A program made the translations under genes and the position numbers. Shown here piece by piece: positions 2,778-7,292 of a DNA stretch of 7,292 bases. Numbering within the stretch: the first letter of the stretch is position 1; every line of letters begins with the position of its first letter. Source of the DNA: a virus (taxonomy: Duplodnaviria; Heunggongvirae; Uroviricota; Caudoviricetes); IMG/VR virus record IMGVR_UViG_2690315994_000013; one strand, given 5' to 3'. The notes under the pieces were generated by a model, which saw only the letters and a list, made by a program, of their open reading frames with translations, was not told where the DNA came from and searched no databases.

Positions 2778-2850
2778 CGTCTTTCTCTGCTGGCGCAGCA
2801 GGTGCCAGTTGTTCAGGCTGACGTGCGAATTGTAAACCTGAATGCCAAGA

Positions 2851-2878
2851 AAAAACAAAACCCGCCGAAGCGGGTTTT
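2851..2878 (-). terminator. Rho-independent terminator (copy 1 of a duplicated hairpin)
   Basis: Minus strand: aaaacccgc-ttcg-gcgggtttt followed by gttttttc. The core cccgccgaagcggg recurs at 4209..4222. Confidence 0.6.
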
Positions 2879-3185: not shown

Positions 3186-3211
3186 AAAAGCCCTGTTAGC
3201 GCAGGGCTTTT
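3186..3211 (-). terminator. Possible weak terminator/hairpin at the end of the HTH-peptidase operon
   Basis: Minus strand: aaaagccctg-cgctaa-cagggctttt, overlapping the peptidase stop codon. Only about 4 U after the GC stem, so termination efficiency is uncertain. Confidence 0.35.
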
Positions 3212-3686
3212 ACATATAAAAATCGAACGACATCTGTTGTGTTCTCACGCCAATTGTTTCCAGTACGATATCCGCAAATGTATCTGCCTGCCATTCTGCA
3301 TCCTCAATACGAGTAGGTTCTTTAACTGAAAAGTGTAAAACTGCTTTGTGTCCAAGAAGCAAATGACCTAGCTCGTGGAAGATAACAGCAAGTGCATGCT
3401 CTTCCCCAAGGCAAGCATTCACATATATTTTATTGGGAACCGTAATTGTTAGAGAAGCGGGGTCACAATGTCCGATAGTTAGATCATACGTCAGAGCCTC
3501 CCACTCTTTGTCGGTCCTGACGTCAAGAGTAACCCCATAAATTGACAGGCTTTCAAAGAACATATCATAACGCTTTCTTTTGCGCTTTGAGGCTGTAAGA
3601 CCAATAGCATTACAGAAGTTTATAGCTCTGTAGGCTATTTCTTCTTCTTGCATCGGTGACACCCTGTTACCTCTCATTTGATACAT
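3210..3686 (-). CDS. ImmA/IrrE-family (M78-like, DUF955-type) zinc metallopeptidase, 158 aa
   Basis: HExxH motif (FHELGHLLLGH) with a downstream acidic residue pattern typical of ImmA/IrrE peptidases. The start ATG 3686 is 2 nt after the HTH gene stop, with a GAGGGG SD inside the HTH gene 3' end. A hand count on about 100 nt gave roughly 41% G+C versus roughly 57% in a sample of the DUF968 gene. Confidence 0.75.
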   Translation of the reverse strand: MYQMRGNRVSPMQEEEIAYRAINFCNAIGLTASKRKRKRYDMFFESLSIYGVTLDVRTDKEWEALTYDLTIGHCDPASLTITVPNKIYVNACLGEEHALAVIFHELGHLLLGHKAVLHFSVKEPTRIEDAEWQADTFADIVLETIGVRTQQMSFDFYM

Positions 3687-3688
3687 AA

Positions 3689-4048
3689 TTACCCCTCATT
3701 GTTATTAATCTTTTGCAATAAATCTGCAAAACTCTTTAGCTGTTCCGGCGTAAACTGCGACTTAGCGAATCCCGCTACAAGCATTTTCTGTTGCTGAGAC
3801 AAACCGTTTACTGGAACTGAGTCATTCGCAACTGCCGCTAACTCCTGTAACCCTTCAATTTCTACACCTTTGGCCTTGAAGTAAGAATCAATCTTCTTAA
3901 CCCACTTCAGAGGTATTTTTTTGCTACCAGTTTCTAAACCGCTAAGAAACGCTGGCGTAGTGCCCAGTTCTTGAGACATAGTCAGAAGAGTACTGTCAGT
4001 ATCGATCCTCGCTTTTCTAACGGCCTTACCGAATTCAGTGAGTGCCAT
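3689..4048 (-). CDS. XRE/Cro-CI-type helix-turn-helix transcriptional regulator, 119 aa
   Basis: N-terminal segment (FGKAVRKARIDTDSTLLTMSQELGTTPAFLSGLETGSKKIP) fits the XRE HTH pattern. GAGGA SD 7 nt upstream of the ATG. First gene of a two-gene operon with the peptidase. Confidence 0.8.
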   Translation of the reverse strand: MALTEFGKAVRKARIDTDSTLLTMSQELGTTPAFLSGLETGSKKIPLKWVKKIDSYFKAKGVEIEGLQELAAVANDSVPVNGLSQQQKMLVAGFAKSQFTPEQLKSFADLLQKINNNEG

Positions 4049-4190: not shown

Positions 4191-4224
4191 TTCACAAAAA
4201 GAACAAACCCCGCCGAAGCGGGTT
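4191..4224 (-). terminator. Rho-independent terminator downstream of hokD (copy 2 of the duplicated hairpin)
   Basis: Minus strand: aacccgc-ttcg-gcggggtt followed by tgttcttttt; same cccgccgaagcggg core as at 2861..2874. Confidence 0.55.
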
Positions 4225-4292: not shown

Positions 4293-4448
4293 TTACTCCT
4301 CAGGTTCGTAAGCTGTGAAGACAGCGACCTCCGTCTGGCCGGTTCGGATTCGTACCTCGCAGAGGTCTTTCCTCGTTACCAGTGCCGTCACAATGACGGT
4401 TAAACAGATGACGATCAGGGCGATTAGCATCGCCTTTTGCTGCTTCAT
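4293..4448 (-). CDS. hokD: Hok/Gef-family membrane toxin, HokD (RelF)-like, 51 aa
   Basis: MKQQKAMLIALIVICLTVIVTALVTRKDLCEVRIRTGQTEVAVFTAYEPEE matches my recollection of E. coli K-12 HokD/RelF essentially residue for residue. AAGGAG SD upstream of ATG 4448. The ORF-track 70-aa version begins at an in-frame upstream ATG (4505) with no obvious SD. Confidence 0.85.
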   Translation of the reverse strand: MKQQKAMLIALIVICLTVIVTALVTRKDLCEVRIRTGQTEVAVFTAYEPEE

Positions 4449-4739
4449 AGCCTGCTTCTCCTTGCCTTTCGGCACGTAAGAGGCTAACCTACGTGTGTAG
4501 AGCATAGATATGGCCTCAGATTAATGTTAAGCGTCTTGCCGGACGCGTAATGTTAACTGGGGCTTTTCTCTATCTGCCTTTTGGTGTTCATGCCTGAGAC
4601 AGATAGCCTCAAGCACCCGCTGCAATTCTACTTAACTCTCCTTTTCCCGCAAACCGTTTTTATCCCCAGCGGCAAATCGAATACACCACCAGCGCCACCG
4701 CCATCGCAATTCCTACCGTTGTTAATGCTTCAGGCCAGG

Positions 4740-5084
4740 TCATCGTAAAATATCCTCCACGCTTATCAGTCCGTTCCGCTCCAGATAACTCATCGCCTTA
4801 TCCGGTAATTTGCAGTCTGGCTTCGCTTTCCTCAGTTGCCAGGTTAACTGCTTTACCAGCATGGTTAACTCATCGACCAGACGCTGATATCCCACTGGTT
4901 TGTATTCATGCAATTTACCGGCTGGCTCTGCTGCCAGCGATACCAGTGCGATTTCCAGAACAGCAATATCCATCTTATATGTGCGGATGATGTCATGGTC
5001 GATTGTGCCCGGTATGCACAGTCTCTGTGCTTCAATAGTCTCCTCTGCGTGAGCTATTAACTGCTCTCTGGTAAAAGTCGTCAT
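4740..5084 (-). CDS. Hypothetical protein, 114 aa
   Basis: Start ATG overlaps the stop of the upstream 55-aa ORF (ATGA). N-terminus (MTTFT) and [10 protein letters not shown] motif are paralogous to that ORF. No recognised domain. Confidence 0.5.
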
Positions 5085-5248
5085 GCCGTAGCCCCTTCTT
5101 GATATTTTTCAAACCAGAACACAACCGGCTCTGCTTCCAGCGATGCCAGCGCAATCCGTGCCAGTTCCATTTGTTCACCACGGGTAAGCCCGTTTTCAAG
5201 CGGATTTTTAATGAACAATTCAATACGTTCTTTGGTAATAGTGGTCAT
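5081..5248 (-). CDS. Hypothetical small protein, 55 aa (not in the ORF track)
   Basis: Hand translation: [61 protein letters not shown] 7 nt upstream; stop TGA overlaps the ATG of the 114-aa gene. Shares MTTxT and IAL(A/V)SL(E/A)AEP with the downstream gene. Confidence 0.45.
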
Positions 5249-5258
5249 GTGTTACTCC

Positions 5259-5522
5259 TTAACCCGCAGTGCTTTCAACTGATGAGGGGAACAAAATCTT
5301 TTCATCAAACCCTGCATTCATATCATGAACAGCAACACACCAATCCATCGACGAACGATTATCAAGAGCCTCCATGATTTCATCCATGCGGCGCAGGTCA
5401 TACAGGTAAATGCTTTTATCGCCAATGGTGTAAAAACCAATTTTTTTCGGTGATGGACAGCGATCAAGAACGTCCTGTAATTCGCTCAACCATGCTTGTT
5501 CTTTTTTTGTCAAAGTTGCCAT
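5259..5522 (-). CDS. Hypothetical protein, 87 aa
   Basis: ATG 5522 preceded by AAGGAGAG within the 31-bp repeat; a TGAtATG junction with the 165-aa gene. No recognised motif. Confidence 0.5.
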   Translation of the reverse strand: MATLTKKEQAWLSELQDVLDRCPSPKKIGFYTIGDKSIYLYDLRRMDEIMEALDNRSSMDWCVAVHDMNAGFDEKILFPSSVESTAG

Positions 5523-5523
5523 A

Positions 5524-5554
5524 TCACTCTCCTTTGATGCGAATGCCAGTGGTA
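5524..5554. repeat. 31-bp direct repeat, copy 1 (tcactctcctttgatgcgaatgccagTggta)
   Basis: Identical to 6018..6048 except one base (T/C). Covers the last codons (...GIRIKGE*) of the 165-aa gene and the RBS of the 87-aa gene. Confidence 0.85.
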
Positions 5555-6021
5555 CTCATTCTCCTGATTTCCCAGAGCACACGAGGAACACCACCGTTTC
5601 CGACCGGATCGCGCTTACTCCGCATGGCGACGCTTGATTCCGCCCAGCTTTTTCTTGGAGGAAGCTCTTTCACACGAACAAAACCAGCTGCGCGAAGAGA
5701 TGCTCCTGATTCATCTGCCTGGGTGTACGTAATACAACGTTGATAACCCATAGCCTTTGCTGCCCGCCAGACAGCACCATAAAGCGCGCTGTTAGCGTTG
5801 CGTTCTCCTGTGGTACATGTGCGATTTACTTCAAGCGTTAATCCATCGTCCAAATGTCGTGCAACAGGTCTACCGGCTGTCGCCACACCTATCAATTCTC
5901 CGGCATCATTTCTCAGACCAATGCTGAATTTATGCCCCACCGGGGGTTTATTGTGTCGGTGATGTCTGGATATAAACGCCTTCGCAACACGAAGAGTAAC
6001 CGGTGAAATCTGCACTCTCAC
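5524..6021 (-). CDS. Hypothetical protein, 165 aa (possibly GNAT-like fold; unverified)
   Basis: Continuous ORF bracketed by 31-bp direct repeats. Start GTG (6021 or 6015) preceded by AAGGAGAG. A central segment (GVATAGRP...NANSALYGAVWRAAKAMGY...ASLRAAGF) is loosely reminiscent of an acetyltransferase core; this is a weak impression only. Confidence 0.5.
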   Translation of the reverse strand: MRVQISPVTLRVAKAFISRHHRHNKPPVGHKFSIGLRNDAGELIGVATAGRPVARHLDDGLTLEVNRTCTTGERNANSALYGAVWRAAKAMGYQRCITYTQADESGASLRAAGFVRVKELPPRKSWAESSVAMRSKRDPVGNGGVPRVLWEIRRMSTTGIRIKGE

Positions 6022-6048
6022 TCTCCTTTGATGCGAATGCCAGCGGTA
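6018..6048. repeat. 31-bp direct repeat, copy 2 (tcactctcctttgatgcgaatgccagCggta)
   Basis: Covers the start/RBS of the 165-aa gene and the end of a 19-codon remnant ORF (VSEISYQASITAGIRIKGE*) that ends with the same GIRIKGE as the 165-aa protein. Confidence 0.85.
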
Positions 6049-6073
6049 ATTGAAGCCTGATAGCTAATTTCAC

Positions 6074-6496
6074 TCACAGTACCGTCTCCTGAAAATTACC
6101 CTGATAGAAAGCCAGTACACGCTGCATAGCTTCACTCTTCCGGCACTCGCGACAGATTATGTTTAGGCGCCTGTCGTAGCGGCGTATTTCGCCGTCTGGT
6201 AATAGCCAGATAAGGTCCGGATCAACCACAGATGGTTTCTTCAGCTTTGCCCTTGAGAGTTTTTTGCGGGCGTTTTGCCAGTCCTTGCGCGCCTGCTCAG
6301 ACGGGAATACTCCGTAACCGGAATTGTAAACATCACCACTGGCGGCCAGCTCCATGCATAAACGACCGACAGACGCATGACTGACACCAATTTCATCCGA
6401 TAACTGCCGAATCGTGCCTCGTCCGTTAAGGCGTACGAATTCCACGATCAGCCCTTTAATTTTTTCCCGCTCTTCTTGTGTAAAAACTTTTGCCAC
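6074..6496 (-). CDS. Putative winged-helix/HTH DNA-binding protein, 140 aa
   Basis: GTG start 6496..6494 with AGGAGG 4 nt upstream. HTH-like segment GTIRQLSDEIGVSHASVGRLCMELAASGDV. Function unknown; it sits directly downstream of the replication initiator. Confidence 0.5.
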   Translation of the reverse strand: MAKVFTQEEREKIKGLIVEFVRLNGRGTIRQLSDEIGVSHASVGRLCMELAASGDVYNSGYGVFPSEQARKDWQNARKKLSRAKLKKPSVVDPDLIWLLPDGEIRRYDRRLNIICRECRKSEAMQRVLAFYQGNFQETVL

Positions 6497-6536
6497 AAGC
6501 CCTCCTGAAAATTACCTCATGACCAGAAATTAACAC

Positions 6537-7292
6537 TTACCCCCTGAAGCCCGGCGGAATTTCAGTGTCCGGTTCAGAAATGTGATTCACGCAACGCTGC
6601 GCAGGCGAACGCCCCAGGCGGATAACCAGTTCATCCCATTTTTCCCGGAGTTTTGCCGGACTCATGATGTTTTTTACCCAGAACGAATCCCGCTGGAGAC
6701 GCCCAAACATTTCACAAATTTGTCTGTGAGTTCTGCCATCCAGCATCCGCATTGTGCGAACGTCATTGGCCCATGCTGTCCAGTTGGGTTCTTTCGGTCT
6801 AGTGATCTCGCCATCATCGCTGGCCGCCTGCTCGTAAAGACTCACGATTCGTCCCCAGATCCACTGTGCGCACACCAAATCTTCCTGACTTCCCCACTGG
6901 CGTTTTTTCGCACTGAACACAACCGCGTCAGGGTGTCGGGTTAAAAAATTCTGTTCAGCCGTCTGCGGGTCCGGTTGCGAAGCGTCCGGACAAGAAGATC
7001 TTTTATCTGACGGATCAGGTTTTAATACTGACGGATCGGGGTCAATCATCGCCCCCCTAATCGGCAGTTTTTTATCAACGGTTGATCCATCAAAATTTGA
7101 CGGGTCAACCGTTGAGGGGTCAATATTTGACGGGTCAACTGTTAACGGGTCATTTTTTGCCGGGCTAATTTTTCTTTTCGGTTTATATGACTCACGCGCC
7201 GCCGCCGCAGCTGCTTCGAGTTTTTCCACATTAAGCCGATAGATATTGCTTACATTACGCCCACCGACCTTACGCTCTTCCTTCGTCAGCCA
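6537..7292 (-). CDS. Replication initiation protein, O-like with DnaT-like C-terminal domain (5' end lies beyond the window)
   Basis: The frame stays open to the window edge (the ORF-track M at 7229 is an internal GTG). The C-terminus (...VNHISEPDTEIPPGFRG) resembles the E. coli DnaT C-terminus as I recall it (...SEPDSQIPPGFRG). An iteron array lies inside the gene, encoding the TVDPS/NIDPS/TVDPS/NFDGS linker repeats. Confidence 0.7.
   Translation of the reverse strand, partial: WLTKEERKVGGRNVSNIYRLNVEKLEAAAAAARESYKPKRKISPAKNDPLTVDPSNIDPSTVDPSNFDGSTVDKKLPIRGAMIDPDPSVLKPDPSDKRSSCPDASQPDPQTAEQNFLTRHPDAVVFSAKKRQWGSQEDLVCAQWIWGRIVSLYEQAASDDGEITRPKEPNWTAWANDVRTMRMLDGRTHRQICEMFGRLQRDSFWVKNIMSPAKLREKWDELVIRLGRSPAQRCVNHISEPDTEIPPGFRG
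7082..7153. repeat. Iteron array (candidate phage replication origin inside the initiator gene)
   Basis: Five 12-bp palindromic boxes of form TTGAnnnnTCAA at exactly 15-bp spacing (7082, 7097, 7112, 7127, 7142): ttgatccatcaa, ttgacgggtcaa, ttgaggggtcaa, ttgacgggtcaa, ttaacgggtcat. Followed by an AT-rich stretch at 7154..7190. Confidence 0.65.

Follow-up and report, generated by a model that had tools for sequence, protein, structure and literature searches.

Genes at the locus and the repeat pair

The IMG/VR virus record IMGVR_UViG_2690315994_000013 (Caudoviricetes) provides a stretch of 7,292 nucleotides (nt), referred to here as the window; all of its genes are encoded on the minus strand, from which the sequences below are quoted. 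In the order of transcription, the window contains the 3' part of an O-like replisome-organiser gene, a DUF977/LygF/Ren-like gene, an open reading frame (ORF) of 19 codons, a gene of the XF1762 family, a gene for a protein of 87 amino acids (aa), two DUF551-like fragments, a hok/sok module, an Xre/ImmA gene pair enclosed by two copies of the same terminator, and then the DUF968, RusA and antiterminator Q genes. By this gene order the locus belongs to a lambdoid prophage of the E. coli type, in the interval that separates its replication genes from Q. The feature under study is a direct repeat of 31 base pairs (bp), one copy of which lies at each end of the XF1762-family gene (Table 1).

The two copies match at 30 of 31 positions, the sole mismatch being T/C at 5550/6044. 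Their longest perfect run is 26 nt (5524-5549 = 6018-6043), and the ungapped similarity reaches 46 nt at 85% (5509-5554 / 6003-6048). A 21-nt core, GGCATTCGCATCAAAGGAGAG, is found at two sites of the window, still two if up to three mismatches are allowed, and does not occur in 200 dinucleotide-preserving shuffles of the window. Copy 1 ends the XF1762-family gene, with its last nine codons (TTGIRIKGE) and its TGA stop (5526-5524), and contains the Shine-Dalgarno (SD) sequence AAAGGAG; its conserved block also takes in the ATG with which the 87-aa gene starts (5522-5520). Copy 2 holds the 3' end of the 19-codon ORF (VSEISYQASITAGIRIKGE*), discussed below as a collapsed ea22-like gene, its TGA stop (6020-6018) and the SD of the XF1762-family gene. 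In both copies AAAGGAG lies 6-7 nt 5' of the following start codon. An earlier note on this DNA had described the repeat, and each copy as a C-terminus joined to the ribosome-binding site of the next gene, and this description was borne out.

An RNA element at the repeat was considered and rejected, because neither copy folds better than its shuffles (z = -0.15 and -0.35) and Rfam has no match at either copy, its only match in the window being sok.

Table 1. Positions of the boundary copies, the exchangeable unit, the flanking genes and other features of the window
Feature	Position	Strand	Basis or remark
Boundary copy 1	5524..5554; family-conserved block 5520-5551	minus	repeat and column conservation
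Boundary copy 2	6018..6048; conserved block about 6014-6045	minus	comparison with relatives
XF1762-family gene (Mom-like, GNAT-related)	5524..6015	minus	NCBIfam and PHROG profile matches
494-bp exchangeable unit (XF1762 gene body + 3' boundary core)	5527..6020	minus	breakpoints against relatives
19-codon ORF, "mini-ea22"	6018..6077	minus	both ends of an ead/Ea22-like gene
DUF977 / LygF / Ren-like gene, 140 aa, upstream neighbour	6074..6496	minus	
87-aa gene (phrog_1714), downstream neighbour	5259..5522	minus	
O-like replisome-organiser gene, 3' part	6537..7229	minus	
Three tandem 30-nt units in the O-like gene	7075..7164		80% and 67% identical to the first
Internal 20-nt inverted repeat of the tandem units	7075..7094 / 7096..7115		
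55-aa and 114-aa ORFs	4740..5248	minus	
29-nt repeat of the 55-aa and 114-aa ORFs	4924..4952 / 5127..5155		86% identical
hok/sok type I toxin-antitoxin module	4293..4618		
Hok-family ORF	4293..4505	minus	Pfam HOK_GEF, E = 2.9e-23
sok antisense RNA	4443..4618	minus	Rfam RF01794, 117 bits
Xre-type helix-turn-helix gene	3689..4048	minus	
ImmA/IrrE M78 peptidase gene	3210..3686	minus	
27-nt direct repeat (two terminators)	2850..2876 / 4198..4224	minus	93% identical

The boundary element J in other phages

The repeats are best explained as two copies of a boundary element of about 32 bp, here termed J, which is the conserved 3' end of ead/Ea22-like genes of E. coli and Salmonella temperate phages. 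The whole explanation, namely this identity of J, its two roles, the unit formed by the XF1762-family gene and J, and recombination at J, is considered highly probable. J reads ...GCT GGC ATT CGC ATC AAA GGA GAG TGA (T/G)ATG. When one representative per class is aligned, the conserved block consists of CGCT, the 21-nt core and TGA(T/G)ATG, about 32 nt in all, and the column conservation has dropped to its background level by 4 nt on the upstream side of the core and by 7 nt on the downstream side. The element encodes ...A/T-G-I-R-I-K-G-E followed by a stop; the SD, AAGGAG, lies within the K-G-E codons and the next start follows 6-7 nt on.

The exact core was found in at least 120 IMG/VR stretches. 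With the 32-nt J as query, 2,480 places were found in 1,557 of 5,426 complete E. coli genomes, most of them at a junction annotated as "ead/Ea22-like family protein | next gene", and the same query located J in 165 phage records, among them those of lambda, numerous Stx phages and P22-like phages of Salmonella, as well as the P1-like P7 and SJ46 and the P2-like PhiR44_2. Reading of 134 occurrences gave 14 unrelated classes of upstream sequences and 21 unrelated classes of downstream genes, joined in 51 combinations. J is therefore conserved at the junction itself, with unrelated genes on both sides, which is the property of a boundary sequence, and the suggestion of the earlier note that the repeat is a conserved gene-junction sequence holds over this wider set of genomes.

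The J of lambda forms the 3' end of ea22 (29844-29874, 31/32 identity), whose product ends ...MMSDAGIRIKGE (...AGIRIKGE). This phage seems to have lost, through a small deletion, the start of the gene that follows ea22. The GenBank record J02459.1 labels both ea22 and ea8.5 as "xis (excision;72)".

The XF1762-family gene and its tail

The gene between the two copies belongs to the XF1762 family (NCBIfam NF045478, 204.8 bits against a cut-off of 50, residues 5-138) and is matched by phrog_1384, "Mom-like DNA modification protein" (E = 1.4e-42). Compared with Mom of phage Mu, it remains below the gathering threshold of the Pfam Mom family (PF25680, 22.8 versus 27.1 bits); the protein is a relative of Mom, and its function is a predicted one. 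A sequence search for relatives of solved structure gave none, an exact look-up of the 165-aa product returned no record, and the literature search found no paper mentioning "XF1762". A 98%-identical protein of E. coli UTI89 sits in a P2-like prophage.

The gene itself had been recognised in the earlier note as one of 165 aa, and its start has to be moved. The GTG at 6021 lies 1 nt past GGAG and is probably an artefact of the ORF finder. The homologues begin ATG CAA ATT..., and the equivalent in the window is GTG CAG ATT at 6015, 7 nt past GGAG. The true product is most likely 163 aa long, and with this start copy 2 lies entirely 5' of the gene.

The homologues from Klebsiella, Enterobacter, Pantoea, Edwardsiella and others end in ...LWEIRR plus 2-5 variable residues. 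The tail MSTTGIRIKGE is confined to E. coli-type alleles, and the NCBIfam match stops at residue 138. Because the homologues of other genera do not have this tail, its approximately 11 residues are read as a boundary element grafted onto the XF1762 gene, outside the family domain. Other Enterobacteriaceae alleles carry different yet related tails (ATTAGIKLQIEGE, AAGIQVIEGEDGE and SAAGIKVEVK), which suggests that each phage community has its own "AAGI..." boundary variant.

The gene and its J recur as a unit in several settings: in P2-like prophages (PhiR44_2, UTI89), in the exo-xis region of a lambdoid prophage beside xis/int, in the P22-like Kapi1, and behind the replication genes, as in this window and in loci L006, L128 and L129. 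In P2-like and lambdoid prophages alike, the commonest partner of XF1762-J is the 87-aa gene.

Breakpoints and the origin of the arrangement

The window was aligned locally with nine comparator loci, and the positions at which homology ends were recorded. These positions, 5526/5527, 5520, 6020/6021, 6034 and 6039, coincide with the boundary copies, and many alignments with other E. coli and phage sequences likewise end at window 6039 (query 840) or begin at 6017 (query 818). The closest relative, E. coli FDAARGOS_1248 (L006), matches 5123-6039 at 99.1% and 6021-7292 at 99.84%, so that the two pieces overlap on 6021-6039. Between these pieces, and thus between two boundary copies, FDAARGOS_1248 carries an extra 1,161 bp with a 118-aa gene, DUF7167, a 58-aa gene and a 119-aa pseudogene, which ends in a J-like boundary, J' (...AAC ATT GGC ATC AAA GGA GAG TGA). 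In E. coli E41 (L127), the flanks are 98.5% and 99.3% identical, homology halts at 5526/5527 and 6020/6021, and 871 bp of other genes (118aa-70aa-DUF4014) replace the 494-bp unit; a related prophage with a different gene in the slot, which the earlier note had proposed to look for, is therefore at hand. Homology with L001 and L129 ends at 6039, and that with E. coli CFS3313 (L128) begins at 5527. Furthermore, CFS3313 has the order DUF977-J-XF1762-J-118aa and L002, FDAARGOS_1248 and E41 have DUF977-J-118aa, a pair in which the 494-bp unit is precisely present or absent at a J site.

Copy 2 in the window is a hybrid. Its left, upstream part is the J linked to DUF977, and its right, downstream part (TGAGAGTGCAG..., TGAGAGTGCAGATTTCACC) matches what lies in front of XF1762 in other loci. 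The crossover therefore falls within the 14 nt GCATCAAAGGAGAG. A description of J and J' as differing by a 6-nt insertion or deletion was rejected, as L130 shows them to be of equal length with two substitutions (GGC ATT CGC versus GAC ATT GGC).

The arrangement of the window was not found as one piece among the 5,426 complete E. coli genomes, and its joint, mini-ea22-J-XF1762, searched as an exact pattern, had no occurrence in IMG/VR, the GTDB species representatives or the JGI metagenome contigs. The only other instance of this joint that was found is that of CFS3313. The absence of joint and arrangement from these sets points to a rare and probably recent recombinant. The simplest route to it would be the loss of the 1,161 bp between J and J' in a prophage like that of FDAARGOS_1248, to which a crossover between two phages at the same sites would be equivalent.

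An alternative is that the 494-bp unit of XF1762 and J entered a phage with the order DUF977-J-87aa by a double crossover at J. This is unlikely, although the unit is precisely present in CFS3313 and absent at the J site of L002 and E41, and the XF1762 allele of the window, with its GTG start, fits the allele of the UTI89 P2-like prophage and not that of FDAARGOS_1248. An artificial empty site, DUF977-J-87aa, had no single-piece match among the 5,426 genomes, the top matches all holding 0.87-1.2 kb of other genes in between. In addition, XF1762 is usually followed by the 87-aa gene in several types of phage, and the two genes therefore most likely arrived together. The idea of the earlier note that the gene between the copies was inserted or swapped through its junctions is thus retained in part: recombination at the junction is supported by the reassortment of flanks, the breakpoints and the variant gene sets, whereas insertion gives way to the 1,161-bp loss as the more parsimonious event, no empty site having been found in the 5,426 genomes.

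The 19-codon ORF

Both conserved ends of ead/Ea22-like genes are kept in the 19-codon ORF. The 24 nt at its start (6077-6054, GTGAGTGAAATTAGCTATCAGGCT, encoding VSEISYQA) match the Ea22 5' end, GTGAGCGAAATTAACTATCAGGCA, at 21 of 24 positions, a match not seen in 200 shuffles; its last 31 nt are J, and about 5 nt separate the two. Dozens of J-terminated genes of 100-390 aa begin with VSEINYQALRE, VSKIDYQALRE or similar, and lambda Ea22 begins with VSEINSQALRE. Of the hallmarks of Ea22 proteins, the N-terminal segment (VSEINYQALRE...) and the terminal K/R-G-E (...GIRIKGE*) are present, and the coiled-coil region (IPR025153) and the C-terminal domain are absent. With only about 5 nt between the ends, the ORF is a remnant and not a member of Ea22; it is best described as a collapsed ead/Ea22-like gene that has kept its first eight and last approximately 11 codons ("mini-ea22").

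The collapse did not happen together with the arrival of XF1762. Among 30 occurrences of the segment, 24 lie behind a full DUF977 gene and 28 lie 5' of the 118-aa gene and not of XF1762; since the 57-nt segment follows DUF977 in at least 24 contigs that lack XF1762, it predates the event in the window. In other relatives, the same DUF977/118-aa slot is occupied by a 103-aa gene or by Ea22-like genes of approximately 145-216 aa, all ending in J. The small ORF had been proposed to be a scar, the 3' end of an allele displaced by the incoming gene. A scar it is, although not one of this event, and the view of it as a displaced 3' end fails, as it holds both Ea22 ends and was in place before XF1762.

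It could instead be a functional micro-gene, or a bridging ORF that passes ribosomes from DUF977 onward. Its GTG start shares bases with the stop of DUF977 (GTGA) and is preceded, at about 10 nt, by GGAG, and its stop abuts the next start. Moreover, the 36 nt of mini-ea22 that precede the core have a median identity of 100% with the window, compared with 96.7% over the final 60 nt of DUF977 and 80.8% over the remainder of that gene, a difference that is partly an effect of ascertainment since the loci were chosen by the exact core and a similarity of at least 28/36. The coding capacity is not maintained, however: the start GTG is GTA in L129, and the frame, closed after 19 codons in the window, continues to 27 in most relatives, where it overlaps the 118-aa gene. 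The 10 distinct substitutions are spread 3:4:3 over the codon positions, with seven nonsynonymous and three synonymous. As the two conserved Ea22-like ends account for the sequence in full, a function of the ORF is rather improbable, and the collapsed-gene reading is preferred.

A chimera that involves the 3' end of the DUF977 gene was also seen. In E. coli AF23 (L004, 977-1120), and also in L025 and L081, a 47-aa ORF consists of the first approximately 14 codons of a 55-aa-type gene and the last seven codons of DUF977, followed by mini-ea22 and J; it joins window 5207 to 6097. This second copy of the DUF977 3' end lies downstream of an inserted 70aa-DUF4014-87aa block, and indicates that the 3' end of DUF977 also acts as a recombination joint.

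Proposed roles of J and comparison with known systems

In the proposed mechanism, J would have two roles. First, it supplies the stop of the upstream gene, a strong SD (AAGGAG) and, 6-7 nt on, the start of the next gene; a gene joined at J would in this way be correctly terminated and the next one translationally coupled. Second, J would serve as a patch of homology, 26-32 bp common to many phages and prophages residing in the same cell, at which homologous recombination could occur in register, probably by phage enzymes of the Red-beta/RecT/Erf type, and reshuffle whole genes as cassettes. The XF1762-family gene would have acquired J as its own 3' tail, and the resulting 494-bp unit would move among lambdoid, P22-like and P2-like phages. 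In the window, recombination between the J of the collapsed ea22-like gene and J', which precedes XF1762 in relatives, would have brought the unit directly behind DUF977, most simply through the 1,161-bp deletion described above.

The lengths involved bear on this proposal. The minimal segment for efficient pairing is 23-27 bp for Red-beta and 31-34 bp for RecA (PMC3945230), and the 26-bp perfect run of the repeats lies inside the former range and below the latter.

Several points weigh against the explanation. All the support is comparative and comes from sequence. The viral scan was made with the exact core, so that identity within these 21 nt is given by construction, and its count is a lower bound. 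The lambda J is followed by TGAGATCGGTTTTGTAAAAGATAACGC and no start codon, where other phages have TGATATGAGCAGGAATACGGGTTTGTAAAAGATAACGC (lambda locus L132, 29374-29874), which means that the role of J in expression is not universal. The crossover that produced copy 2 had 14 nt of perfect identity (17/18) at its disposal, less than the published pairing minima; this step may have been a microhomology-driven or illegitimate event, or it may have involved a donor, outside those sampled, in which a full J precedes XF1762. Finally, the parent is not FDAARGOS_1248 itself, in which XF1762 starts with ATG in place of the window's GTG, the DUF551-like region differs, and the XF1762 side is 99.1% identical to the window versus 99.84% for the DUF977 side.

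That genes are exchanged at short conserved boundary sequences is an established concept, and how general such exchange is remains a matter of debate (PMC3233612, which refers to the modular theory of Susskind & Botstein 1978 and to Clark et al. 2001). Like the lambdoid boundary or linker sequences presented there, including those of phage HK620, J is conserved at the boundary between unrelated genes and coincides with module breakpoints, from which homologous recombination has been deduced. Unlike these linkers, J lies partly inside the coding sequence, giving unrelated proteins a GIRIKGE tail, and is common to lambdoid, P22-like, P2-like and P1-like genomes.

The published accounts of Ea22 agree with the conserved ends found here. 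All Ea22 variants share the N-terminal segment and the terminal +GE (PMC7093339), which match the 5' and 3' conserved ends of the present alignments, and Donaldson and colleagues described the genes as mosaic, the amino-terminal segment being common to them and the C-terminal domains unrelated (PMC10834534). In these papers K/R-G-E is a feature of the protein; here it is part of a nucleotide block that continues past the stop and holds the SD of the next gene. J also differs from the published motif in being present on a gene outside Ea22 (XF1762) and in the 19-codon collapsed ea22.

It may be asked whether the GIRIKGE tail is kept for a function of the protein, such as an interaction or degradation signal, with the identity of the DNA as a secondary effect. 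All the Ea22 proteins studied end in K/R-G-E, "significance unknown" (PMC7093339), which would fit such a function. On the other hand, the nucleotide identity includes synonymous positions and extends past the stop into TGA(T/G)ATG, the tail is carried by proteins with no relation to one another (XF1762, Ea22-like, EaA-annotated) as well as by a non-gene, and the XF1762 homologues of other genera do without it. In CFS3313, moreover, the tail reads through to GIRIKGEEHGNKTRG, and the codons for K-G-E, AAA GGA GAG, contain the SD of the next gene. A protein-level explanation is accordingly very unlikely, and J as a nucleotide element is the reading followed below.

Recombination at short homology by Rad52-like phage recombinases has been put forward as a source of mosaicism (PMC2327257, PMC3945230). 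In comparison with these systems, the window has no recombinase gene, the copy-2 crossover rests on 14 perfect bp, and the evidence presented here is that of sequences.

A dedicated mobile element (transposon or integron-like cassette), whose target-site duplication or recombination sites the repeats would be, is hardly tenable: a single gene is flanked by direct repeats and the 494-bp unit occurs in different contexts, but the unit holds only the XF1762 ORF, with no transposase, integrase or terminal inverted repeats, the same sequence stands singly at thousands of ordinary gene junctions, and neither copy folds significantly or is matched in Rfam. A transposon with a target-site duplication was rejected on the lack of a transposase or terminal inverted repeats inside the repeats, and 31 bp far exceeds the known target duplications. 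An integron cassette was likewise rejected. As with integron cassettes, promoterless single genes are moved as units, with a recurring site and in one orientation within an operon; in contrast to them, no integrase is encoded in the window, and J is not an imperfect palindrome with an attC-type fold. Instead, it is an ordinary junction of stop, SD and start, and its exchange is best explained by general homologous recombination.

A broader proposal can be made tentatively, and is held to be somewhat less probable than not. J and the conserved Ea22 5' end may together form a maintained exchange site, a pair of linkers of about 24-32 bp for in-register swaps of accessory genes among temperate phages of E. 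coli and Salmonella with at least four genome types (lambdoid, P22-like, P2-like and P1-like). Mini-ea22 would then be an empty docking site, and K/R-G-E would be a by-product of the linker and of the SD for the following gene, and no feature of the protein. If this is true, the docking site behind DUF977 brought cargo of the exo-xis region, namely XF1762, the 87-aa gene and the DUF551-like genes, between the replication genes and Q.

Other features of the window

The O-like gene probably runs off the end of the window, its relatives being 320-356 aa long. The three tandem 30-nt units inside it, with their internal inverted repeat, encode repeated DPS(N/T)(I/V)D peptides and look like the origin iterons that lambda-type phages carry in the initiator gene. 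Farther downstream, the two copies of a 27-nt direct repeat form intrinsic-terminator hairpins (minus strand AACCCGCTTCGGCGGGTTTTG...) and flank about 1.3 kb with the Xre-type and ImmA/IrrE genes. The block may be a further cassette with a repeated functional signal at either end. Next to it lies the hok/sok module, composed of the Hok-family ORF and the sok antisense RNA (Table 1).

The 55-aa and 114-aa ORFs share a 29-nt repeat encoding IAL(V/A)SL(A/E)AEP, and both begin MTT(I/F)T(K/R)E; the relatives annotate truncated DUF551 genes here. Several genes found behind J elsewhere begin with the same M-T/S-T/A-I-T-K-E codons. These common MTT-type starts suggest a second conserved boundary at the 5' ends of such genes.

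Implications for phage mosaicism

The case is a clear one of ordinary phage mosaicism, a known kind of feature, and not a new kind of system. For annotation, it means that the junction has given rise to two artefacts, the 19-codon ORF and, probably, the start that yields 165 aa. The modest new points are the spread of J over phage families, its capture by a gene outside Ea22, the collapsed ea22 as an "empty cassette", and an explanation of K/R-G-E. As regards the last, AAA GGA GAG holds the next SD and the block continues through the stop to the following start, which suggests that the terminal K/R-G-E of Ea22 proteins is the protein shadow of a nucleotide element. One boundary sequence is common to several families of temperate phages, and can be grafted on unrelated genes as a harmless C-terminal tail. 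The comparisons made here, which are those of sequences, give unusually clean support to the view that some mosaic joints arise from homologous recombination at short boundary sequences, and that such joints would not be due solely to random illegitimate joining followed by selection.

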